A DNA stretch of 33,826 bases from a virus (taxonomy: Duplodnaviria > Heunggongvirae > Uroviricota > Caudoviricetes), in the IMG/VR virus record IMGVR_UViG_2690316318_000017, positions 1-33,826 of that record. One strand, given 5' to 3'. A model generated the notes under the pieces. It saw nothing but the letters and a program-made list of their open reading frames with translations, did no database searches and was not told the DNA's origin. The translations under genes and the position numbers were made by a program. This document shows positions 1 through 33,826 of this stretch, piece by piece. Each line of letters opens with the position of its first letter. Position 1 is the first letter of the stretch.

Positions 1-465
1 AAACTCACCACGTAAATCAGGCAATTTATTTGTCGGATAAGCCTTTGCCAGTTCCGGGTATTTTTTTTTTCCCGTCATCGCACCGTTGCATTTCAGCCAG
101 CCTGTCGGCGGAGTGGCTGAAGGCCATGGAACAGGTACACCAACAGGTAATGCCGAACCTTCTCCCAAACCAACGTTTATGAAAATGCAGAAATAACGAG
201 CGTCCGATTTGATATCGCCAAACGGATTTTTGCGGCTTAACAGCAACGCGCGAAGCGCGGTAAGTAGCTGATCCGTTTTTTTGGGGTCAGGTTGAATATG
301 TGCACTACCAAGAACATTAAGGAGTTCCTGCTGTAAATCACGGGTTGCCCCCTGCTGATTGTTTAAATAACCAGCAGTCACGAGGGTTCCTTCTATCCCC
401 TGAGTGGGGTCACCATCATGAAACAATTGATCCGGTGTATTTATCGGGGGCATCAGATTTTGCAT
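1..465 (-). CDS. Tail fibre protein, N-terminal fragment (gene runs off window start)
   Basis: Minus-strand frame open from ATG at about 465/453 to position 1 with no stop, so absent from the ORF track; AAGGAGGAG Shine-Dalgarno just upstream; translation contains the tail-fibre motif PWPSATPPTGWLKCNGAMTGKKKYPELAKAYP...LPDLRGEF. Confidence 0.55.
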   Translation of the reverse strand, partial: MQNLMPPINTPDQLFHDGDPTQGIEGTLVTAGYLNNQQGATRDLQQELLNVLGSAHIQPDPKKTDQLLTALRALLLSRKNPFGDIKSDARYFCIFINVGLGEGSALPVGVPVPWPSATPPTGWLKCNGAMTGKKKYPELAKAYPTNKLPDLRGEF

Positions 466-5718: not shown

Positions 5719-7958
5719 CAGTAAGTTCCTCCCGTACCTCTGTTACCGTCCTGAAGGTTGTATTTGTTCACTGCCTCCGCCACGACCTGACCATCGAGCA
5801 CCAGTTGTGTGGTGAAATTAATGGGGCTGGCAGGTGGTCCCCAGTGCGTGAGGTATTCCGGCTGGGTGATGCGTCCGGGTTGCCTGGATGCTGATTCAGG
5901 CGTTGTGTTTCCTGCGGCTTTGTTCACCTGCTCCGGTGATGGCAGAGCATCAGCTGCGGCTTTCAGCTCATTATCCCGTTTAAGCATTCCTTCACGGGTA
6001 AAGAACAAGGAGCCATCGTCTGCAAAAAACAAACCATGATTATCTGTAAAGTTCTTGATGGTATCGCCAACAACAGCCCCATAAAGTTCTTCTGCGGCCT
6101 CATAGCCTGCGTAAATGGTTGCAATTTTTCCGGCTGCGCCCATTATTTTTCCCAGACGTCCCTGATTGCCGGAAGCGACTTCACTGATATCTTTAACTTT
6201 GGATGCAGTATCCCCAGTATCATCGGGTTTATCTGCTCCTCCGGACACTGGATTACCGGTAATAAGTTTCAGCCCCGCAAACGTGACGGCCGCTGCTGTC
6301 ATCGCTTTAATGGCTGTGGTAGCTGTCACCACTGCTGTGGTCAACCCCGGAAATTTTTCACCCGCCCAGCTTATGGCATCGGCCACAGTCCCGGATGCAT
6401 CAGCCAGTTTTTTCACACCATCCATTTGTGAAAATTCAAGCGTGTTTTTAGCCTGTTCGGTTTTAAAATCATTCGTGTCTGATATGAATTTAAAATCCAC
6501 ATCACCCGCGCGCTGACCTTCCGGCAGGGTGCGCTGCTGATTAATCGCGTCCTCAACCTTTTTCCGGTATTCCGGGTTGTTACGGTAAGCCAGCAACGCT
6601 TTTAACGCCTGTTGGTCTGCAACCAGTTTCCCGACACCAAAGCCTTCAAGGAGTTTTGCCATCGAATCATAAACAGCCGTCTGCTCGCCTTTATCCCGGG
6701 CTGAGGCCAGTTTCTTTTGCAACTCCTGAAAGCGTTTATCGCTGGCAACGATTTTGTCTATCAGGCTGGACAGCGCATCTATCGGATCAAGTCCATGTTC
6801 GCGCGCCTGAACCAGCGTACCGGAAAAATCAATTCCTTTACCGTTGTAATCAATGCTCTTTGCCGCTGTTTCAATATCGTGGCTGGTCAGTTTAGCCAGC
6901 AGGTTAAACACGTTATTTCCGGCCTCATCACTGCTTCCCGCCGTGATGGCGGCAGCTTCATTCAGTGCCAGAATCTTGACGAAATCATCCTTGCCTCTCA
7001 TCCCCGCAGCTGACGCTGACCCCAGTTGCGAAGATAACCAGCGGGCCATGTCGCTCAGTTCAAAGCTGCCTTCTTTGCCCGCTGCAATTGCCATATTCAG
7101 GACGGTGGAAATATCTTCATCCCTGAATCCAAAAGTCTTTTTGCCCTTAAGCATCACATTAGCCAGGTCTGTCGCTGATGCACCGGAAGCCGTGGCGTAT
7201 TTCATCAGTTCAGGCAGCCACTTACTGGCTGTTTCAAATGAAATACCGCCATCTTTCAGCAGGGCATCCAGCGTTTCGGCCGCATCCTCTTTCGTGCCGC
7301 CACCATAGGTCACTGCGTTACGGATGCTGCTTTTCATCTGCTCAAGACCAGCCCTGCGTCCCTCCAGACCGCCACCACTGAAGGCGGTATTGGCCATCAT
7401 TGCCAGCTGGCGTTCGTAGCTCATCTGCTTTTTGACCGGCTGTGCCATAATGGCCGCACCTGCTGCGATACCGCCGCCTATTGTCACGGCATTCCCGCCA
7501 AATGCAGCCGCACGGGCAAAACGCCCCCGTTCAGGGATAACAGGCGTTTTCGCCATTTTCATCTGAGCCTGAGTAACGCCATCCAGTTCACGCTTGAGTG
7601 CCCGGGCTTTTTCCCGGGTGGCCTGCATGGCGCGTTCCTGCTCCTGCGCAGATTCAAAACCGGCGCGGGCCAGACGGTTATAACTGGCAACCGTCAGATA
7701 AATTTCACGCCGGATCTCGCGTTCTGCACGAATACCGAGCGTTTCCCGGGCACGGGCGGCACGCTGTATCTCTTTTGCGGCCTTTTTCGTGCTGTTAATG
7801 CTTTCCTGCTCGGTACGCTTCTGCTCTGCGCCTGCTTTCCGGGTTGCCTTTGTTACACCTTCGGTGGCTTTGATAACCTGTTTTTGTCCCTTTTCCAGGA
7901 CCTGCGAGGCTTCGTCCTTCGCAGTCAGGGTCATGCCAACTTTGAAATTACCGGCCAT
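5718..7958 (-). CDS. Tail tape measure protein
   Basis: 746 aa, Ala/Gly/Lys-rich and low complexity, located between the chaperone and the baseplate genes. Confidence 0.8.
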   Translation of the reverse strand: MAGNFKVGMTLTAKDEASQVLEKGQKQVIKATEGVTKATRKAGAEQKRTEQESINSTKKAAKEIQRAARARETLGIRAEREIRREIYLTVASYNRLARAGFESAQEQERAMQATREKARALKRELDGVTQAQMKMAKTPVIPERGRFARAAAFGGNAVTIGGGIAAGAAIMAQPVKKQMSYERQLAMMANTAFSGGGLEGRRAGLEQMKSSIRNAVTYGGGTKEDAAETLDALLKDGGISFETASKWLPELMKYATASGASATDLANVMLKGKKTFGFRDEDISTVLNMAIAAGKEGSFELSDMARWLSSQLGSASAAGMRGKDDFVKILALNEAAAITAGSSDEAGNNVFNLLAKLTSHDIETAAKSIDYNGKGIDFSGTLVQAREHGLDPIDALSSLIDKIVASDKRFQELQKKLASARDKGEQTAVYDSMAKLLEGFGVGKLVADQQALKALLAYRNNPEYRKKVEDAINQQRTLPEGQRAGDVDFKFISDTNDFKTEQAKNTLEFSQMDGVKKLADASGTVADAISWAGEKFPGLTTAVVTATTAIKAMTAAAVTFAGLKLITGNPVSGGADKPDDTGDTASKVKDISEVASGNQGRLGKIMGAAGKIATIYAGYEAAEELYGAVVGDTIKNFTDNHGLFFADDGSLFFTREGMLKRDNELKAAADALPSPEQVNKAAGNTTPESASRQPGRITQPEYLTHWGPPASPINFTTQLVLDGQVVAEAVNKYNLQDGNRGTGGTY

Positions 7959-8504: not shown

Positions 8505-8875
8505 CCTTCCACCTTCCTGAGTGCAGCCATTTTGATATCAATTTTCGCTTCATTATCGACGGTGTATTTCTCACCCACTTCGGTTGTGAAGCAGTCCAGA
8601 TAAGAGGTGCGTTTGCCGCTGTTACTGAGCGGGTACAGCGAGATTTTCACACCTTCCAGATTTTCCCAGTCCGGCTCGTTGGTATCAGGAATAACCGCCG
8701 AAACGGACAGTTCGTAGGTGGCAATGCCACGGGCAAAGCCTTTAGCCCTGCCGGTTTTGTTCATGGTCTTGACCAGCTTTCGCCCGGTGTTGATCTGAAC
8801 ATCAAGGTCGGTGATCTCGATTTCCTGGCTGTCAATTTCCAACACAATCGAGCCGATATATTCTTTCAGGGACAT
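8501..8875 (-). CDS. Tail tube protein
   Basis: 124 aa ORF immediately downstream of the sheath gene, overlapping the chaperone start. Confidence 0.6.
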   Translation of the reverse strand: MSLKEYIGSIVLEIDSQEIEITDLDVQINTGRKLVKTMNKTGRAKGFARGIATYELSVSAVIPDTNEPDWENLEGVKISLYPLSNSGKRTSYLDCFTTEVGEKYTVDNEAKIDIKMAALRKVEG

Positions 8876-16285: not shown

Positions 16286-17867
16286 TCAGTCGCCCCCAGA
16301 TATCCGCCACAAAGAATGCCTGCGTCAGCAACTGCCGCAGCGTGTCATCCGGCAGTTCCGGCCACGCTTCCGCCAGTACATTCATGGCCTCGTCTGCATC
16401 CCGGCCTTCCTGTATGGCCTGCACCAGTGGGGCCACCAGTTCGTTCATCCCCTGCGCGATGGCCTCTGCCGGAAGCTCTGCCCGGTCGATGGCGCGCTGT
16501 GCCGGGTCGTCCTCCCCGTTGTCCTGCTGACTGAGCGCGGCAACATTCAGCCGCTCACGCAGCTGGCTGAGGCCCGCCTGCACAGGGAGATGCTGTGCCA
16601 CCGGCACCAGTACCTCTTCGCCGTCTTTCGGGGTGGGGATACCGGTTTTTTTGCGTACCCACGACACAGGGATATCCTTCATCCCCACATTGTTGACCAG
16701 CACGTTGACGGCTTCTGCCACGCCCTTAATGTCGGCTTCCTGCTGCACATCAAACACCAGACGCGGCAGACGGCGTGGCGGGATATCCTGCCAGCCGTTC
16801 AGGCTGGCCATCATCTGTATCAGGCTGCTGAACATGCCGGACAGCTGGCGAGCATCGGCGGCCAGAATGTCGCGCCGGACCTCGTTATGCACATTACCCA
16901 GCGCGTTGGTGGAGGTTTTACCGTCAGCCTGGCTGGTCAGCGTACTGCCCAGAATCACTTTTGAGGTGGTACGCTCCGCCCATTCCACCATCGACATGAA
17001 CGCCTCCGGCCCGCCGGACGCGGCTTCCTTGAACTCGATTTCGTTACCCTGCGGCAGGGCTGCCACCGCTTCATGGCCCAGATTGACCAGGGCTTCAAGA
17101 ATGTTGTCCCGGTCCTCGTCACTGGTGCCCTGTGCATAGTACGCAATGCGCGCCGGAAGGCCGTAAATCTCCAGAAATTCTGCCATATCACGCAGCGCAA
17201 AGTTTTTGAACAGATACGGCCAGACCAGTACACGAAACAGACCAGACGAACCCAGGAACCCCGACCGGGCGTTGTAACGGTGAACCAGCCAGCCGAACGG
17301 CCACAGCGCGGAACCGTCTTTACCATCTTCCCCACGATTGCCGTCATCCAGCCGGAGTTCGTCATTGTGTTCCGGCAGGGTAATAAACCAGTTATGCGGT
17401 CGCAGCGTCACCGCATCCGGTAACCACGTTTTATCCACGAACGCCCAGCTGATTTCCTGACAGCTGAAGCCGTAACCGACACTGGTCATCCCGTTGAGGA
17501 TGATGTCCTCCATGTCCGGGATACCGTGCAGCCATTCATCCACGGCGGCGGCCAGCTCCTTTTCTGCCTTCGAGGCATTGCGGGGTGGCTCCACCGACCA
17601 GTCCAGCGTCAGCAACGCTTTTTTGCGCTTTTCCATCTCGGCGAACAGATGACCATCACGTTCTTCCATATCCGCAAACAGCATCGCCTGCGCCGGAAGA
17701 TAACCGCGCTCGGCAGCTTCCAGAATGCGCGGCAGTTTTCTGATGTTCAGACCACGGGACGGGTGGTCGGGATAAATGCGCAGCCGTTCCGCCACTCTGA
17801 CCGACTGCGTGGTTTTGAGTGCCTCACGTTTCAGCGGGCGTCCGTAAATATCAACAAGCTGTGCCAT
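16272..17867 (-). CDS. Portal protein (Mu gp29/H-like)
   Basis: 531 aa ORF directly downstream of the terminase large subunit. Confidence 0.75.
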   Translation of the reverse strand: MAQLVDIYGRPLKREALKTTQSVRVAERLRIYPDHPSRGLNIRKLPRILEAAERGYLPAQAMLFADMEERDGHLFAEMEKRKKALLTLDWSVEPPRNASKAEKELAAAVDEWLHGIPDMEDIILNGMTSVGYGFSCQEISWAFVDKTWLPDAVTLRPHNWFITLPEHNDELRLDDGNRGEDGKDGSALWPFGWLVHRYNARSGFLGSSGLFRVLVWPYLFKNFALRDMAEFLEIYGLPARIAYYAQGTSDEDRDNILEALVNLGHEAVAALPQGNEIEFKEAASGGPEAFMSMVEWAERTTSKVILGSTLTSQADGKTSTNALGNVHNEVRRDILAADARQLSGMFSSLIQMMASLNGWQDIPPRRLPRLVFDVQQEADIKGVAEAVNVLVNNVGMKDIPVSWVRKKTGIPTPKDGEEVLVPVAQHLPVQAGLSQLRERLNVAALSQQDNGEDDPAQRAIDRAELPAEAIAQGMNELVAPLVQAIQEGRDADEAMNVLAEAWPELPDDTLRQLLTQAFFVADIWGRLNADS

Positions 17868-23841: not shown

Positions 23842-24077
23842 AAAACACCCCGCGCAGCCATAAAACCAAAGACATATGACACAATTGATGCAGTGATAAG
23901 GATTAATGACCTTTTAAACTGACTTTTTTCTTCGCCACAGTTCATCCAGTTAAGGCATCCAAGTAATACGCCGTATAAAATTTCCATCATCTTCAGCCTG
24001 TTACTCCGTGATTTTTCCAGCGGTTTTGCGCCGCGCTGGGCTTTTTGCAACAGCTGTGCAACATCACCCCGCAACAC
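23838..24077 (-). CDS. Small membrane protein
   Basis: 79 aa with C-terminal hydrophobic segment (SLILITASIVSYVFGFMAA). Confidence 0.3.
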   Translation of the reverse strand: MLRGDVAQLLQKAQRGAKPLEKSRSNRLKMMEILYGVLLGCLNWMNCGEEKSQFKRSLILITASIVSYVFGFMAARGVL

Positions 24078-24344
24078 CCCGTCAACCTCACTCGTCTGTT
24101 ACTAATCCTCAACCATCGCCAGACCCCAACACCGTTTCTGCGAGCTAACAGAATTTTTGCTTTACGGTTTTTCATCGTTTTGCTCTCCTGCGTTTCTTTG
24201 CTGCACGTCGTGCAGCTGCAATACCGGTATGGCGCCTTGGTGCCGGGATGATGTTGCCTGCCATCAGGACATGCGGCTTTGAAATTAGCGCAGAAGCCCA
24301 AAAACGAGTCGGGTATGGTAATAAACCGATAAATGCAACACGCA

Positions 24345-24863
24345 TTACGCACCTCCTATCCCCTGAAGCATGACCGCGCGGCAGGCTTCATCAACCATAG
24401 CTTCTACGTTTTCGAGAAGTACGTAGCTGTACTGCTGCCCACTAACCCATTCTTTTCTGCGAGGTAATGCGCGTGGGTCCGCTACAATGGCTCGCAAACG
24501 TTCCAGAGCAGCTGGTACTGCTGACACTGGAGGGGCAGCATAAAGCTCATGCCTTCCATCAGGCAGCGAGTGACCCACATACTCACCGACCCCGTCAATA
24601 CACATTTCCCCATCTTCAACAATGCATGATGCTACTGGCAAAGCCACCTCCCGTGCCTCCAGTTCTTCTGCCCACTTCCGAAGCACTTCAATCTCACCAT
24701 TACGAGTTATCAGGTCACGACACATTCTTTCGTTTTCATCCAACAGCGCCTGCACAACCTCCGGCGTAGCCGCAGCACGAAAAGCCTGTAGGCTCTGCCA
24801 CGTCGTATCCCCCTTCGCGGCCTCTGCCACCTCACGCAGTGCCTGATAATTAATCTCGCTCAC
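24345..24863 (-). CDS. Hypothetical early protein (possibly Ead/Ea22-like)
   Basis: 172 aa; N-terminus MSEINYQALREVAEAAKGDTTW resembles prophage Ead/Ea22-type N-termini. Confidence 0.3.
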   Translation of the reverse strand: MSEINYQALREVAEAAKGDTTWQSLQAFRAAATPEVVQALLDENERMCRDLITRNGEIEVLRKWAEELEAREVALPVASCIVEDGEMCIDGVGEYVGHSLPDGRHELYAAPPVSAVPAALERLRAIVADPRALPRRKEWVSGQQYSYVLLENVEAMVDEACRAVMLQGIGGA

Positions 24864-25179
24864 TGGCTGCCTCCTTTTTCCATGTTTTCAGACTTTCACC
24901 ACAGAACGGGCAAAATGAAACTCGAATTGGTGATTTAGAAAACTCACCGGAACGCAACATCACCAAATCAGGTCCACGGGTTAAACTCTCATTCCAGATT
25001 TTGTATAGCAGTAAGCCTTTTCTTACTGAGCATTCAGCATCACGCTCAAGAGACTTTGCCAATGCAGCACACGGCTCTATTCGATTGCCATTAATTCGAC
25101 AATTTGATCCACTCACTTCAACTCCTCCCGACGACGTTCCTGAAGTTCCAGCATTGCGGCCCGGAAATCCTGCCACCAT
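24850..25179 (-). CDS. Small protein with putative zinc ribbon (start uncertain)
   Basis: Cys pairs C-x9-C and CPFCGES near the C-terminus; overlaps the upstream ORF so the real start is probably internal. Confidence 0.25.
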   Translation of the reverse strand: MVAGFPGRNAGTSGTSSGGVEVSGSNCRINGNRIEPCAALAKSLERDAECSVRKGLLLYKIWNESLTRGPDLVMLRSGEFSKSPIRVSFCPFCGESLKTWKKEAASERD

Positions 25180-25295
25180 TCCTCATCGGCAACCGGGGTG
25201 TTCCGCTCCAGCACCTTGTCCGCATCGGCAATCAGTCTGGTCAGACTCTTATCGCTTATTCTGGTTTGCTGACTCACTGGTTTCCTCCTGTTCAT
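25113..25295 (-). CDS. Hypothetical small protein
   Basis: 60 aa charged ORF in the early gene string; overlaps the downstream ORF, so uncertain. Confidence 0.2.
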   Translation of the reverse strand: MNRRKPVSQQTRISDKSLTRLIADADKVLERNTPVADEEWWQDFRAAMLELQERRREELK

Positions 25296-25561
25296 TTTTC
25301 ATTCCGGTACACAAGAATTACGATATCTCCCCAGGTAATTACGCGTGCCGGGTCGCCCTGTTGCATATAGTCAATATCAAAAGCGTCATTAAACGCATTT
25401 AGTGCCTTCACGCGCTTGTCTTTGCAGCGACGTTTTTCACATTGTTTAAAGACCGAAGAAATCAACCACCTGAATGACATAAAAGTGATATAGCCATAAC
25501 CGATAAGCGCCAGACCTGTATTCATGGCTACATCTATCGTTATCGTTTTATCAATGACCAT
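25292..25561 (-). CDS. Hypothetical small membrane protein
   Basis: 89 aa with one hydrophobic segment (GLALIGYGYITFMSF); 4-nt overlap with neighbour. Confidence 0.3.
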   Translation of the reverse strand: MVIDKTITIDVAMNTGLALIGYGYITFMSFRWLISSVFKQCEKRRCKDKRVKALNAFNDAFDIDYMQQGDPARVITWGDIVILVYRNEK

Positions 25562-25781
25562 TGCCAGCCTCCTGTTTTGCCACTTTAAACGCCCGTAACA
25601 TCGGAACCGTTTTACCGGTGATGACGGTTCTCATTAAAAGACCGCCACCGCTCTCATGGTGCACTTCAGGGGCTACAAACAGCGCCGCATCCACAACCCG
25701 GCAATAGCGGCGGAACTCCCAGAACCAGCATGTAACAATGATTTTTGCGGTGACTCCGTAGTCATAAAATTCAATATTCAT
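25551..25781 (-). CDS. Hypothetical small protein
   Basis: 76 aa ORF with start/stop overlaps to both neighbours. Confidence 0.25.
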   Translation of the reverse strand: MNIEFYDYGVTAKIIVTCWFWEFRRYCRVVDAALFVAPEVHHESGGGLLMRTVITGKTVPMLRAFKVAKQEAGNGH

Positions 25782-28077: not shown

Positions 28078-28314
28078 TTAATGTGTGTTATGCGCGCAGG
28101 GGTCCACGCCAACAGAAAATAAATCAACGCCGTTAAATTCTTTATTAAGCGTTTGATTCATTACCTCCCATAACCGTTGTCTTACTCCGACCTCTTTATC
28201 CGTAAATCCTTTTTTATCAATAGCCCCCATACTCCTGACACGAAGCGTGCCGTTTTCATCGGTATAGATGATTACCTCTAACTTAACCGCCATGTTTTCC
28301 ACCTTTGAAATCAA
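28078..28314 (-). CDS. Small protein, member of three-gene paralogous array
   Basis: Internal start MAVKLEVIIYTDENG shares the N-terminal pattern with the next two ORFs. Confidence 0.35.
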   Translation of the reverse strand: MISKVENMAVKLEVIIYTDENGTLRVRSMGAIDKKGFTDKEVGVRQRLWEVMNQTLNKEFNGVDLFSVGVDPCAHNTH

Positions 28315-28474
28315 ACGATTTAAAAATAATTTCGTTCATAAAACAGTGAGTTTTTATGATAATGTCGGAAACCTGCTCTCCCGTGACATCAGGCGGCAAC
28401 TGATACGTCGCGACAGCTTTCTCCGGTTTACCAGGCCTGTCCAGGCTGAAGGTTAACTCAAGCTCTAATGACAT
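28283..28474 (-). CDS. Small protein, member of three-gene paralogous array
   Basis: N-terminus MSLELELTFSLD; tandem with the two related ORFs. Confidence 0.35.
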   Translation of the reverse strand: MSLELELTFSLDRPGKPEKAVATYQLPPDVTGEQVSDIIIKTHCFMNEIIFKSFDFKGGKHGG

Positions 28475-28484
28475 TTTTCACCTC

Positions 28485-28736
28485 TCAATGCATTTGTGTC
28501 TCTTGAGGAATATACGGACATCCCTGTGCCAGTTGTTTCACGTAATCATGGTAGATTTGCAGATCAAGCCGTTCATTTCCGTGTTTCTCCTTCAGAATCG
28601 TACAAATAGCGCCAACAGTCCCCAGAGTTCTTGCCGCTTCTTCGAGTGTGGCATTGTCGCCATTTTCCACCCGAATAAGGTTATGGCACTGGTTATTACC
28701 CAGGTCGGTAAATACTATTGTTAATTTCACGCTCAC
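28485..28736 (-). CDS. Small protein, member of three-gene paralogous array
   Basis: N-terminus MSVKLTIVFTDLG; tandem with the two related ORFs. Confidence 0.35.
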   Translation of the reverse strand: MSVKLTIVFTDLGNNQCHNLIRVENGDNATLEEAARTLGTVGAICTILKEKHGNERLDLQIYHDYVKQLAQGCPYIPQETQMH

Positions 28737-28751
28737 TTTTAATTCCTCGTT

Positions 28752-28991
28752 TTATTGCCATACGACGGTGCAGCCGTCGATACAGGACGTTTTAACCACA
28801 CGACGCAGGCCGCTGAATGTCTGGATGATTTCCGTTATCGGCCATACAGGACCGCCCACGGGCGGGCAGGCATAAACCACAGGTAAACGGTGATGTTGCC
28901 CAGTTACGCGACCGCCGGTGGTGTGGATGGCTACACGGGCACGGGAACGGACGGCGTTAATGGTCTGCTTGTCCATCGTCTTGTTCTCCAT
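28752..28991 (-). CDS. Hypothetical small protein immediately downstream of B (kil-like position)
   Basis: 79 aa ORF whose start overlaps the B stop codon. Confidence 0.3.
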   Translation of the reverse strand: MENKTMDKQTINAVRSRARVAIHTTGGRVTGQHHRLPVVYACPPVGGPVWPITEIIQTFSGLRRVVKTSCIDGCTVVWQ

Positions 28992-29884
28992 CAGTGAATT
29001 AACATTTCTGAATATTTATCAATGACCTGCACACTGACCGGTGCATCGCTGATATCACAAATCCGGTACACACCGCGCGCCAGCTTGAACAGACGACGGG
29101 CATTGCCCAGCGAACGTGTGTAAAGTGCCTCACCAATTTCCGGGTCTGCCGCTTCCGGCATCATGTCTGTGGCAATCTTGTTAAAATCTTCCTGCGTCAG
29201 CGTATCGCCCAGGTTAAGCGCCAGCGCCACGCGGCTGTATAATTGAGCGAACTCACCACAACGGCCCTTAAGGTTAATCAGAAGGTGAGGCATACCCGCC
29301 AGGACAATCCCGATACCCGCTTTGTCATGCAGACGGCGCAATACCTCCAGTGCACGATAGGGAAGCAGTTCAGCCTCATCCACCATCAGCAGACGACCTG
29401 ACCCACGCAGTTCACGCACACAGGCATCAATCTTCTCGCGAATATCGCCGTGAACCTTTATACCCAGCTGACGGCACAGTTCATCGAGTAACTTTCTGGC
29501 CGTATAGCCAATATCGGCTTCAATGAGCACTACATCCCGGTTTCTGGCAGCATACTCACTCAGAATCATGCTTTTACCCAGACCCGCCGCGCCATACAGC
29601 ACGCAAATATCACACTCCAGATGGGCGTAGGTCAGCACCTCCAGCCCTTTGGCGGCCATGCCGGTGGTGACAAATCGCACTTTAATACGGCGGTTGTTTT
29701 CCTTTTCCCATTCACGGGTCACAAAGGCAGAAATGCGTTCTTCAATATCAGCCATATCGCCCTGATATTTACCCTGCAAATACTGGTTAATAACGGCGCT
29801 GCTACGACCAATAGCACGGGCAACGTGGGTCTGCGTAAAGCCGCGACGGGCCATTACGTCATTTAATTGCGTAATTAAACTCAT
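28991..29884 (-). CDS. B: Transposition ATPase, MuB-like
   Basis: 297 aa; N-terminal HTH-like region then Walker A (GAAGLGKS) and Walker B-like (LLMVDEAE) motifs; directly downstream of the transposase. Confidence 0.8.
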   Translation of the reverse strand: MSLITQLNDVMARRGFTQTHVARAIGRSSAVINQYLQGKYQGDMADIEERISAFVTREWEKENNRRIKVRFVTTGMAAKGLEVLTYAHLECDICVLYGAAGLGKSMILSEYAARNRDVVLIEADIGYTARKLLDELCRQLGIKVHGDIREKIDACVRELRGSGRLLMVDEAELLPYRALEVLRRLHDKAGIGIVLAGMPHLLINLKGRCGEFAQLYSRVALALNLGDTLTQEDFNKIATDMMPEAADPEIGEALYTRSLGNARRLFKLARGVYRICDISDAPVSVQVIDKYSEMLIH

Positions 29885-29902: not shown

Positions 29903-31978
29903 TTAACGATTATTTGTGCCGTTTTTCTTTAAATTGCGCTCACGGTCAGACACGAATAAATAAAGTTCTTCTTTTTCCTTTTTCTCCTGGCGTTCCAGTC
30001 CATATCCCAGATTAAAGTCAGGCTTCTGCGTAATAGCCGGGGTAAGCTCGCGTTTAGCCTCTTCGATTTTCTGCGTGGCCCGTGCAATGCGGCCTCTGGC
30101 GCGTTTCTCCTGCTGCTGTTCGATAACAGCTTTCGGGAACGCATCAACCTTATTACCGTTCCAGATGGCATCGCAGATATAAGAGCCATCAGCCCGCCGG
30201 ACAATGACGCTGTTTGCATCATGAATATCGTAACTGACCCTGACTTCATTCCCGTGCTCTGCGGCCAGCTCATACGAGTAATAAATATTGTTGAATAACT
30301 GAATTTCCCCGCGAAATGTTTTGCGCGTCACTTCCGGCCTGAACATTTCATGCAGTTCTTCCTGCGACAGAAAATCAATTTCAACATTCTGCTCTTTTAT
30401 CAGTTTCCGGCGATACGCTGCCGGGCTGTAATATTCGCCATCCTCTTTGCGGGGAAGGCTGCTGTGTGGCCGGTTGTTATAGCGTCTGACCTCCAGCTCT
30501 ATGGCGGCCATCAGTTGCTCAAAGGTAGGGATTTCATCCCTCGCCTTAACCTGCCGTTTTGTCAGCTCTTTCCCTTTGTGGGTGGCCTTAATGGCTGACT
30601 GTGTGATGCGTTGCTGCATCATCACCGTTTCCTTGTCTGCATTTTTTGAGCAGTACGTCTGGAAACTCAGAGCCACATCTTTGGGTATTCCTTTGTTTGC
30701 TCGTTCTATTACCCCGCGCCCCTGCGGGTTACCAGGTATCCCCGTGTGATGCTCCACACCCAGCCGGGGCAGAATCCCGGTAATATCGGCATCAAGTACC
30801 TGGTTTTTTTCACCGCCCCCGTTATCGGAGTAATAAATCAGCGGTATTCCGTGCTGTGCCATGCCGTAACGTAATGCATCAGCAACGGCTATCACGTTTT
30901 CCGACAGGGACAGGGACCAGCCCACAACAAAGCGCTGCCCCGCATCCATAACCAGCGTCACTTCTGGCCGGAAAATATTGCCGGTCAGGGGGTTAAACGC
31001 GGTCATTTTCATACAATGACCATCCCCGACCCATACCGCATTAACCGGTAATGATGTCCACTCGCGCCGCACAAAGGGATTGAGCGAACGCCAGGCTGAA
31101 CCTGTGGAGCGGAAACGCTCCTTAACAATCACCGGGACGCTGCTTAACACCCGTCTTACTGCGTGAACTGAAGGCAGTGCCGCCAGCATTCCCGCATCGT
31201 TCGCGTGTTTTTCATGCCACCAGGCTGAAAACTCGCGATACGCATATTCAACGGTCGGTCGCTTCCATGAGCGATAGAACATAAAGAAATCGCTCAACCA
31301 CCAGACCTGCTCCCACGGTGTCCCCTTATGATGACCGGGAGCCAGTAACGCCAGTAACTGATTGGCATCACCGCGCGCCATCACCCAGCTGGAGTACCAG
31401 CTATCCAGGCTGCCGGTGCTGACACCGGTTCGCTTTCCCTGACGTGCATTTGCAGTATTAGCTGCTTCGATAATGCGGTCAGGTAACGCCCCCATGCGCA
31501 CACCATCAACGATGTGCTTTAACGCGGCCTTCCTGGTCATTCCGGCGTATTCACGCAGTTTATGCACTTCAGTAGCCAGCAATATCCGCGCATCAGCGAT
31601 GGCCTTTTGCTTGTCGGTCAGTGCCTGGACTTCGCGTAATGCCAGTTCAGGGCATTTGACCATCACTTCAAGTTCATCGCGAATGGTGACGTTCTTAACT
31701 GCCTTCTGCTCAACCACAACGGGCAGTTGCGTATCTTCCAGGACCTGATGGGTCAGGCGTTGACGTAAAACCTTCTGAACATCTTTAGGTAAACTGGATA
31801 TATGGTACTCATATATTTTCCCCTGAACTCCAGACTTCCTTCTTCTTGTCCAGTTCGCTCGTTTAGCTTTTTGAGTGATCCCCTGTACAGTTTTCGGTAG
31901 CCCTTGAAGCCCTGTTAGTTCATTCAACGTAAACCATTCAGGTTCGAACTTGACTTCATAGTCGTTGTTCTTATTCAT
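29903..31978 (-). CDS. A: DDE transposase, MuA-like
   Basis: 691 aa; N-terminal DNA-binding domain paralogous to the repressor N-terminus; central core with acidic residues (VWVGDGHCMKM... and IYYSDNGGGEKN) consistent with a DDE/RNase H-fold catalytic domain. Confidence 0.9.
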   Translation of the reverse strand: MNKNNDYEVKFEPEWFTLNELTGLQGLPKTVQGITQKAKRANWTRRRKSGVQGKIYEYHISSLPKDVQKVLRQRLTHQVLEDTQLPVVVEQKAVKNVTIRDELEVMVKCPELALREVQALTDKQKAIADARILLATEVHKLREYAGMTRKAALKHIVDGVRMGALPDRIIEAANTANARQGKRTGVSTGSLDSWYSSWVMARGDANQLLALLAPGHHKGTPWEQVWWLSDFFMFYRSWKRPTVEYAYREFSAWWHEKHANDAGMLAALPSVHAVRRVLSSVPVIVKERFRSTGSAWRSLNPFVRREWTSLPVNAVWVGDGHCMKMTAFNPLTGNIFRPEVTLVMDAGQRFVVGWSLSLSENVIAVADALRYGMAQHGIPLIYYSDNGGGEKNQVLDADITGILPRLGVEHHTGIPGNPQGRGVIERANKGIPKDVALSFQTYCSKNADKETVMMQQRITQSAIKATHKGKELTKRQVKARDEIPTFEQLMAAIELEVRRYNNRPHSSLPRKEDGEYYSPAAYRRKLIKEQNVEIDFLSQEELHEMFRPEVTRKTFRGEIQLFNNIYYSYELAAEHGNEVRVSYDIHDANSVIVRRADGSYICDAIWNGNKVDAFPKAVIEQQQEKRARGRIARATQKIEEAKRELTPAITQKPDFNLGYGLERQEKKEKEELYLFVSDRERNLKKNGTNNR

Positions 31979-32174
31979 AACGTGATGGCCAAATTTCTTC
32001 TGGCTTTTTACCGATCACACTAGCGACAATCATTTCTGCTTTGGGCCATTTTGTACGTAGAACATTACCCAAACTTCTTGATTTCATTCCATGCTCTCGT
32101 GAAAGCCGACTAAAGTTTGTTCCTTTCTTTTCTAGTTCCGCCTTGATATCTGACGGATGCATATCTTGTCTCAC
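31971..32174 (-). CDS. ner: Ner-like DNA-binding early regulator
   Basis: Conserved Ner/Nlp pattern KKGTNFSRLSREHG...WPKAEMIVASVIGKKPEEIWPSRY; listed start is GTG, ATG 4 codons in is likely; overlaps the transposase start. Confidence 0.8.
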   Translation of the reverse strand: MRQDMHPSDIKAELEKKGTNFSRLSREHGMKSRSLGNVLRTKWPKAEMIVASVIGKKPEEIWPSRYE

Positions 32175-32420
32175 GTCTCTACCTCTTCACATAAATCAAC
32201 AGATATGAGATCTTGAGTGATTACTCGCATGTGTACGCGATTGAGTTACTCACCTGCGTGAAGAATACTAGATTTAAACAATGTTTAAGTCAACACGTTT
32301 AAATCTATGTTTAAAACATTTTAGCAAGCAGGTTGCTTATCGTTTTGTTTTTGAAGTAATTTTTGCGTTTTAAACAAAAGCTCTATTTCATGCTCTTTTG
32401 TTTAAATCTAAGGGGTTAGA
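32175..32420. promoter_or_regulatory. Divergent early/repressor promoter-operator region
   Basis: 246 bp AT-rich intergenic region between divergent ner and repressor genes with five TTTAAA cores and an exact 11-bp direct repeat GTTTAAATCTA at about 32297 and 32400. Confidence 0.6.
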
Positions 32421-32999
32421 ATGAAACAAGAATGGGTTGCCGCAAAAGACCTGGTAGGGCTTCATGGTTTACCTGCCACAATTCAGGGAATTCACCAAAA
32501 AGCCAAAAGGGGCGGATGGCGCAAAGAGAAAAGAATTACACCTGGTGTGAAGGGACATCAGGTATACTTCTACTTGCCTGATTTGCCTGAAAAAATACGC
32601 TGCTCCTTGGTGTCGAAAGACGGAGAAACTCCAGTGAGGAATGATTTAAACAAAGGGTTGATATCAATACTGGAAATGACATCCGCAGAAGATCAATTCA
32701 ATCTTTTTCGCGCTTTGTGTGAATTTGGCATCAAAGGAGTCCTAGAACACCTACAACAACCCACCAGGCAAGCTACGCAGGCCGACAGCGACCAGGACGA
32801 ACAGGAGAATGCCATCAGAAGCCTAAACATCAGGGAATCGCTTAAAGATGTTATATGTATGGCTCTAGATGGTAATGAAGAAACCGACAAAGAGATTTTG
32901 CGACGCATCGAATCTCGTGCACGGGCTGGGTCGCCAGGTGGTCAGACCGTTGCCACGCCGGAGCAAGAAACGAAGCCTGTAAACAAGAAATCAGCATAA
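32421..32999 (+). CDS. c: Mu-type repressor (c-like)
   Basis: 192 aa, only phage ORF on plus strand, divergent from ner-A-B; N-terminal 60 aa is paralogous to the transposase N-terminus (shared Mu operator/enhancer-binding domain); RBS AAGGGG. Confidence 0.6.
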   Translation: MKQEWVAAKDLVGLHGLPATIQGIHQKAKRGGWRKEKRITPGVKGHQVYFYLPDLPEKIRCSLVSKDGETPVRNDLNKGLISILEMTSAEDQFNLFRALCEFGIKGVLEHLQQPTRQATQADSDQDEQENAIRSLNIRESLKDVICMALDGNEETDKEILRRIESRARAGSPGGQTVATPEQETKPVNKKSA

Positions 33000-33160
33000 G
33001 CGCCTCGTTTTGGCGGGGCGTGTGCTGTTAGCTAATCAGCAATAACCACAACAAAACCGAACACAACAGATGAGAACAAATTGAGGAAAACGGGCAAGGA
33101 TAAAACACTTTTTAAAAGCATTTAAAACCCGTTAAGTTTGTAGCAGAACCAGATCAAAAG

Positions 33161-33303
33161 CGCCCAGAAATGAGCGCAAAAAAAAGCGTTTTTGGTCATT
33201 TCTCACAAATCCGCCCAGAATCACACTAAATCACCACACCCCGCGCCACACAAGGCTTGCAGGTTCTACCAGGCTGCACGAACTCCGCCCAGAATTGATC
33301 ACT
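33161..33303. repeat. Three putative transposase-binding end repeats (L1-L3-like)
   Basis: CGCCCAGAA-containing ~20-bp motifs at about 33161, 33212 and 33287, the last ending about 10 bp from the prophage terminus ...CCCCACA. Confidence 0.55.
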
Positions 33304-33311
33304 ACCCCACA

Positions 33312-33826
33312 TTGTCCTTGCTTATAAAACGAAGGATGACCGTTTCATTCAGATTTGTATGCCCGTTTATGACGCTTACTATCCGAAGTTTATTAGCTGT
33401 ATTGGCCGCCCTGATCTGGCCGGAGATGAACGCTATACCCGTTTGCAGGAAGTGGCGAAACATATGCGGTCTCCCGAAGTTTACGACATCATTTGGCAAC
33501 AAATAGAACAAAAAACTGCCAGCGAATGGCGGGAGATCCTGATTGAAAATGATATTCCGTTCAGTGTGGCGCAAACGTGGGAAGAAGTTCTACAGGACGA
33601 GCAGGCGTGGGCAATTGATGTATTTTATTCCATGAAATATGCCAATGGCAGTGAGAAGGCGTTGGTACGCCCCCCCATTTCGCTGCGTGAATGTGGTCTG
33701 CCGGATTATTTGCGAGCACCGCTGTTAGGGGAAAATACGCCGCAAATTTTGCGCGACCTCGGGTACAGCGAAGCGGAAATTACCCAACTTGAAGCTGATA
33801 ACGATATTGCTGTCTGGCGTGACTGA
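33312..33826 (+). pseudogene. Host family-III (CaiB/BaiF-type) CoA-transferase gene, 3' fragment interrupted by the prophage
   Basis: Frame containing ORF 33359..33826 is open upstream to about 33299 and encodes ...IVLAYKTKDDRFIQIC...IGRPDLAGDERY..., a family-III CoA-transferase pattern; it stops inside the phage end repeats, so only the C-terminal ~170 aa are present. Confidence 0.65.

Follow-up and report, generated by a model that had tools for sequence, protein, structure and literature searches.

Positions 33161–33311 of the 33,826-nt stretch of DNA analysed here (the window) very probably form the left (attL, repressor-proximal) end of an intact-looking Mu-like myovirus prophage inserted by DDE transposition, and the three repeats that they contain are its predicted L1–L3 sites. 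The prophage is of the Mu-like transposable kind already known; its departure is a target-site duplication of 4 bp, found also in at least two related subfamilies. This departs from the 5- or 6-bp rule for recognising transposable prophages and is the sole point of wider interest. For the element itself, the analysis fixes the prophage boundary to the base (33311/33312), identifies a host CoA-transferase gene inactivated by a transposable phage, and offers a six-site model (L1–L3, R1–R3) for a common, little-studied Mu-like prophage family of E. coli and E. albertii.

The prophage ends inside a host CoA-transferase gene

When 5,426 complete E. coli genomes were searched by megablast, the same terminal sequence was found in 49 genomes at 52 places, where it adjoins genes as varied as aslB, eutC, phnJ, ypdF, yfcC, chbG and an RHS gene. 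In every case the E. coli homology ends at window position 33311, plus or minus one coincidental base, and it is here that the tract ...CACTACCCCACA terminates (...CCCCACA). The flank beyond it (33312–33826) gave no megablast match among the same 5,426 genomes. The corresponding gene is uninterrupted on metagenome contig OLIF01000047.1 (locus L056), which aligns with the window at 99.6% identity from exactly 33312 to the window end; its empty site reads ...CCCGTTTGTCCTTGC... / ...AGCCCGTTTGTCCTTGC.... The junction is located between 33311 and 33312. An initial annotation, made from the sequence alone, had placed the phage end at about 33311 with ...CCCCACA, and both the stop of E. coli homology and the intact allele aligning from 33312 bear this out.

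The intact protein of 410 aa is recorded as a CaiB/BaiF CoA-transferase of Escherichia albertii, and the 155-aa fragment encoded in the window belongs to the same cluster. Because the flank matches the E. albertii CoA-transferase gene, the host is E. albertii or a very close relative.

33312..33826, plus strand: 3′ part of the disrupted host gene, a CaiB/BaiF family III CoA-transferase of E. albertii type (Pfam CoA_transf_3; OLIF01000047.1 alignment)

The insertion falls at about codon 237 of 410. The CoA-transferase is the first gene of an E. albertii cluster (seen in locus L002) that continues with a BcrAD/BadFG-type activator, two HGD-D dehydratase subunits, a GntP permease, an acyl-CoA dehydrogenase and ETF/FixABCX-like proteins. 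In this strain the insertion has probably abolished the function of the cluster's pathway, or at the least exerts a polar effect on it.

Three repeats lie within 151 bp of the terminus

Exact matches to the 9-mer CGCCCAGAA were sought on both strands of the 33.8-kb window. Three were found, all on the plus strand (33161–33169, 33212–33220 and 33286–33294), with the whole trio inside 151 bp of the end. Dinucleotide-preserving shuffles gave a mean of 0.42 matches, and none of 100 shuffles contained three. The initial annotation had counted the repeats correctly and had placed the first two where we find them, while the third starts at 33286 and not at 33287. That the motif is not common elsewhere also held, as CGCCCAGAA occurs in the window at the three end sites only.

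The repeats belong to a 15-nt family, AAATCCGCCCAGAAT, with start-to-start spacings of 51 and 74 bp. Read on the minus strand from the terminus inward, the left end begins TGTGGGGTAGTGATCAATTCTGGGCGG..., and the core TTCTGGGC(G) starts at positions 18, 92 and 143 counted from the terminus. The 8-mer TTCTGGGC has one extra copy in the window, at 16947; the 9-mer has none. The features of the end are as follows.

33161..33311, minus strand: complete attL-type end, terminus plus three transposase-site-like repeats, read inward (repeats; homology stop in 49 E. coli copies)
33310..33311, plus strand: terminal CA, the putative cleavage/strand-transfer point; from outside it reads 5′-TGTGGGGTAGTGATC (sequence; sibling ends)
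33286..33307, minus strand: L1-like site GGGTAGTGATCAATTCTGGGCG, core TTCTGGGC at positions 18–25 from the terminus (sequence; relatives)
33234..33285, no strand: L1–L2 spacer of 52 bp, including TGCAAGCCT (putative function)
33212..33233, minus strand: L2-like site TGATTTAGTGTGATTCTGGGCG, core beginning at position 92 (position kept in relatives)
33161..33182, minus strand: L3-like site TTTTTGCGCTCATTTCTGGGCG, core beginning at position 143 (position kept in relatives)

A weight matrix was built from six sites, those above and their counterparts at the other end (see below), and was run over a 44.5-kb locus with a whole sibling prophage. The sites score 26–33 bits and the next best position 15 bits, a contrast that is partly circular, the matrix having been made from the same six sites. 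Read with that reservation, the scan shows no further candidate site inside the phage.

In Mu, the protein HU binds to the L1–L2 spacer and puts a bend in it (PMC3145075). The spacer described here contains the 9-mer TGCAAGCCT at 33253–33261 (position 51 from the end), and the same 9-mer occurs in the Mu L1–L2 spacer at position 84. It is shared with Mu though the ends are otherwise unrelated in sequence, with a chance expectation of roughly 1%; it was not found in the Sp18-like phage discussed below or in the most diverged relative.

A terminator-like hairpin (GCGCTCA/TGGGCGC followed by TTTTGATCTG) overlaps L3 at 33160–33177 on the minus strand. It was rejected as a feature of the end: its stem bases differ in siblings, and such sites are as many as chance predicts. 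The hairpin is probably fortuitous.

The adjoining genes are those of a transposable phage

Inward of the terminal repeats lies an early region with the following features.

32421..32999, plus strand: repressor (c-like), 192 aa, transcribed toward the end, with N-terminal HTH_Tnp_Mu_1 (Pfam)
32163..32420, no strand: divergent c/ner control region with at least six copies of TTTAAAC(A/T) (repeat count)
31971..32162, minus strand: Ner-like small HTH gene, 63 aa (PF13693 HTH_35; coordinates transferred from L002)
29903..31978, minus strand: MuA-type DDE transposase, 691 aa, catalytic residues D319, D385 and E425 (Pfam; BLASTP to MuA)
28991..29884, minus strand: MuB-like AAA+ target-delivery ATPase, 297 aa (Pfam AAA_22, TniB; 31% to MuB)

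The transposase matches HTH_Tnp_Mu_1 (1e-16) and Mu-transpos_C (9e-17) above the curated cut-offs and rve below its cut-off; HTH_Tnp_Mu_2, the Mu end-binding subdomain, is not among its Pfam matches. In BLASTP alignments with MuA, identity is 39% in the N-terminal domain and 22% over 309 residues of the core; D319 falls on D269 and D385 on D336, and E425 lies in the motif GVIERAN. The ATPase is 31% identical to MuB (E = 4e-20). The reading frames of transposase, ATPase and repressor are all full length. HTH_Tnp_Mu_1 is common to the 192-aa repressor and the transposase, and the repressor gene stops 160 bp short of L3.

Neither the annotation of the sibling nor the genes called in the early region include an integrase, and the same element occurs at many unrelated sites (more than 12) with differing flanks. 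The initial annotation had reasoned from a DDE transposase, a B ATPase and the absence of an integrase to integration by transposition; the Pfam matches, the MuA and MuB alignments and the many unrelated insertion sites agree with that reasoning.

The TTTAAAC(A/T) copies at 32163–32420 occur in both orientations and include perfect inverted repeats of 11–13 nt. In Mu, the enhancer (E element) overlaps the operators O1–O3 (PMC3145075). By analogy, the TTTAAAC(A/T) repeats are probably operators and transposition enhancer, read by the domain that repressor and transposase share.

Among sequenced phages, the closest by transposase are Pseudomonas VW-6B (47%), Klebsiella ST405-OXA48phi1.1 (45%) and Yersinia Tongde (45%); identity to the transposases of Mannheimia 3927AP2 and Haemophilus SuMu is 41%, and Mu is more distant. 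A sensitive blastn search with window positions 31900–33311 gave no match in 50,697 phage records; at the DNA level this segment has no close relative among sequenced phages.

Sibling prophages supply the right end

The first base of the window already lies within the tail-fibre region, short of the right end; that end was therefore taken from sibling copies. In E. coli 20KM0223N (locus L001) the element is inserted between yeiP and yeiQ, and its right end reads TGTAACTTCGCGTTTTTTTCTGGGCTAATTGGCGCACAATTCTGGGCGGAGAGAGCGCAACCAAAAAGCCCAGAATTGG. The right ends of siblings begin TGTAAC, which together with the left ...CCCCACA gives the 5′-TG...CA-3′ termini that had been recognised from the left end. 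The core TTCTGGGC starts at position 18 of the right end, at 40 (22 bp further in) and, inverted, at 68; the offset of 18 from the terminus is common to both ends. The arrangement is thus Mu-like, as had been suggested by the L1/L2/L3-like spacing of the repeats, and has matching sites at the right end of siblings. An inverted copy of the terminal ~25 bp had been anticipated at the other end, and the siblings do have an inverted repeat there, albeit an imperfect one: the two termini agree at 16 of 28 positions, namely TGT, scattered bases, and TTCTGGGC at 18–25 of both.

The right junction of the insertion seen in the window was sought along three routes. None of the contigs encoding the truncated host fragment reaches the far end, each breaking off within the prophage. 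A search through the 190-aa baseplate protein led to E. coli-type copies only, since that protein is listed in 4470 blocks of the collection. Finally, the chimeric N-terminal proteins predicted for a 3-, 4-, 5- or 6-bp duplication had no exact match in a comparison that a single residue or start-call difference also causes to miss. From the sibling ends we predict that the junction would read ...ACCAGCCCGTTTGT joined to TGTAACTTCGCGTTTTTTTCTGGGC..., with TTGT on both sides, and that TGTAAC would directly follow ...CCCGTTTGT.

A degenerate pattern fitting both ends was also scanned against a collection of genome contigs and gave one match, an attL-type end in Erwinia tracheiphila.

Sites are kept, and change together, in diverged relatives

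Left ends were aligned among IMG/VR relatives whose transposases are 60–94% identical. The terminal 25 bp, with L1, are nearly invariant even at 60% transposase identity. L2 and L3 keep their positions, with a core that consists of TTCTGG followed by G/A and then C/T; across relatives this core, and not the full CGCCCAGAA shared by the repeats in the window, is what is conserved. In the diverged relatives the L2 core is TTCTGGAT or TTCTGGAC. The spacers between the sites diverge and are almost unalignable in the relative at 60%.

Relatives that carry TTCTGGAC at their L sites carry TTCTGGAC at their R sites as well (L074/L077 on one contig; L070), and in these lineages R3 is GTCCAGAA or TCCAGAA. 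That sites at two ends 35 kb from each other share a change speaks for their recognition by a single protein. Each site spans about 22 bp, and on the strength of this co-variation and of the architecture of the ends the candidate binder is the phage's own 691-aa MuA-type transposase.

Insertion duplicates 4 bp of target DNA

The duplication of target DNA was read from copies with both junctions. A 4-bp duplication flanks all 12 end pairs, eight from E. coli (TCAG, GAAT, TCTC, GATA, GAAG, TGTC, AGTG and CAAA) and four from IMG/VR (CAAG, CGTG, CGTG and CATG), one of the latter four being from the TTCTGGAC lineage. The empty yeiP/yeiQ site of K-12 has a single TCAG. A duplication of 5 bp was considered and rejected, as the base beside the 4-bp repeat differs between the two sides in every E. 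coli pair. The initial annotation had expected 5 bp just outside 33311, and in this it was mistaken. The observations that it had named as telling against a transposable end (termini with no inverted-repeat relationship, no target duplication, a motif common elsewhere in the genome) were not encountered. For the window, the rule gives the following feature.

33312..33315, plus strand: TTGT, one copy of the predicted 4-bp duplication, the second copy lying outside the window (12/12 sibling rule)

Target duplications are 5 bp in Mu and 6 bp in B3, and a ‘5/6 bp’ scar is used to find such prophages (PMC8705779). The element thus differs from Mu sensu stricto (Muvirus), which duplicates 5 bp, and from the B3/Tn552-type phages both in lacking their 6-bp duplication and in having a transposase with Mu-type domains, which is not of the Tn552 family. 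The 4-bp duplication is well supported in the family of this element.

Two related types show the same length. Record LC727881.1 annotates, without comment, a 4-bp ‘duplication due to insertion’ (GATG) for an Sp18-like phage, and the associated paper does not mention it. In one IMG genome with a Mannheimia-type element, GAAT and GAAT flank the two ends, which are on separate contigs; this points to a 4-bp duplication there too. In the literature that we searched, the coverage of which is incomplete, no description of a 4-bp duplication in Mu-like phages was found.

We put forward tentatively, with confidence falling somewhat short of even, that transposition with a 4-bp stagger, as against 5 bp in Mu and 6 bp in B3, is characteristic of an entire clade of Mu-like myoviruses. 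The proposed clade would span Enterobacteriaceae and Pasteurellaceae, would include the E2348/69 or E. albertii, Sp18 and Mannheimia 3927AP2 types, and would have six-site ends in the style of Mu. If this were so, the transpososome of the clade would hold target DNA in a geometry unlike that of MuA, and boundary finders keyed to a ‘5/6-bp scar’ would mis-call its members. As a naturally occurring variant, the 4-bp duplication could help in asking what determines the stagger at the target in MuA-type transpososomes.

A shared layout with family-specific motifs

The positions of terminal sites were computed on the actual sequences of four types of phage and are given as core starts counted from each terminus.

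Element's family: motif TTCTGGGC; left 18/92/143; right 18/40/68 inverted
Mu: motif CGAAA-type; left 21/125/166; right 20/42/57 inverted
Sp18-like insert in LC727881.1 (transposase 43% identical): motif TTGATAC; left 19/114/166; right 19/41/76
Mannheimia phage 3927AP2 (transposase 41% identical): motif TTTTGCATAG; left 18/108 inverted/165; right 18/40/about 66 inverted

The ends of Mu likewise have TG...CA termini and three sites each, with L1 at the tip followed by a long spacer, L2 and L3; its L1–L3 and R1–R3 sites have been described (PMC3145075). An R1–R2 distance of 22 bp and an inverted third right-end site are common to Mu and the family of this element. The gene layout is also that of Mu: a repressor facing the left end, then ner, A and B, with an N-terminal DNA-binding domain shared by repressor and transposase. 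In contrast, the CGAAA-type motif of Mu is unrelated to TTCTGGGC, and the left-end spacings are 104 and 41 bp in Mu compared to 74 and 51 bp here.

The Sp18-like phage (Mu_JNE082796 insert, LC727881.1; from Shiga-toxin-producing E. coli) has offsets nearly those of the element's family; its right end, however, begins TA, not TG, and the third right-end site is not inverted. This Sp18-like phage sits in an Stx2c phage. Mannheimia vB_MhM_3927AP2 has the terminal 15 bp TGTGGGGTA.TGATC (left) and TGTAA (right) as in the element's family and similar right-end offsets, while its inner motif, TTTTGCATAG, is different and its L2 is inverted. The 3927AP2 phage record extends past the right end with about 48 bp of non-phage DNA. 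All four types place one site at the tip, leave a long stretch before two more at the left end, and set R1 and R2 one site length from each other, and the motif is particular to each family. Such a pattern would be predicted of repeats to which each phage's own transposase binds.

Alternative readings of the end

It is rather unlikely, though it deserves the most weight among the alternatives, that the end is genuine but belongs to a copy that is fixed and inactive, with repeats that are relics out of use. The identical junction, with the same truncated 155-aa host fragment, is present in five independent sequencing samples, which suggests vertical inheritance in the lineage. The frames for transposase, B and repressor are nevertheless full length, and copies at more than 12 other sites have ends identical or nearly identical to these, which speaks for recent movement of the family. 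This reading concerns the present activity of the copy, not what the sequence is.

The repeats could also bind another protein (the repressor, Ner or a host factor) and so regulate repressor read-out or block read-in transcription. The same core is found at the same offset of 18 at the right end, however, 35 kb off and beside tail-fibre genes, and the c/ner region, where operators are expected, is occupied by the separate TTTAAAC repeat family. The course of the repressor gene, which runs toward the end and stops 160 bp before L3, and the terminator-like hairpin over L3 would suit a regulatory role, but siblings do not keep the hairpin, and terminator-like sites are just as numerous as chance would give. 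We consider such a role very improbable.

Lambda-type att arms, too, have direct repeats clustered near the prophage boundary, and in this the end resembles the att site of an integrase-type prophage with arm-type repeats. An att site is scarcely credible for an element with no integrase among the genes annotated in the sibling or called in the early region, with identical ends beside more than 12 unrelated host sequences and flanks unrelated at every site, with TG...CA termini, and with a 4-bp duplication of varying sequence in place of a common core. As for chance, a motif of 9 nt is short and the terminal DNA is A/T- and C-rich, but the absence of three copies from all 100 shuffles, the location of all three repeats no more than 151 bp from the end, and the keeping of their positions in diverged relatives and in mirror image at the other end leave that explanation practically no room.

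A proposed six-site model of transposition

On the preferred reading, a left end used in DDE transposition, the steps can be proposed by analogy with Mu. Transposase monomers would bind L1–L3 together with R1 (18), R2 (40) and R3 (68, inverted). The ends would synapse, probably aided by bending of the L1–L2 spacer and by the c/ner enhancer, roles that we infer from the corresponding elements of Mu. Nicks just after the terminal CA would free the 3′ ends, which would then be joined to target DNA brought by the MuB-like ATPase. With the joins staggered by 4 bp, repair or replication would then produce the 4-bp duplication (TTGT at the window site).

Differences among sibling prophages

The siblings in E. 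coli, for example those of EPEC E2348/69 (NC_011601.1 2715935–2751670, with eutC split) and 20KM0223N, have left ends 91–99% identical in DNA to that of the window, with the same L1–L3 sites and gene order; host species and insertion site are different, and so are several early-region segments and the invertible tail-fibre segment. Four segments of the window have no megablast match in the 20KM0223N sibling: 5963–6289, 23854–25563, 28293–28754 and 31777–32824. Most of the repressor gene falls in these segments, as do several small early genes, which indicates that modules of the early region and of immunity have been exchanged in mosaic fashion among members of the family.

At the other extremity of the window, positions 157–201 match the 20KM0223N sibling (8781–8825) in inverted orientation, and positions 1–156 have no counterpart there. 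Window positions 1–201 look like a Gin/Pin-type invertible tail-fibre segment, with a putative crossover site near TTCTCCCAAACCAACGTTTATGAAAA; the invertase gene of the 20KM0223N sibling is present as a remnant only.
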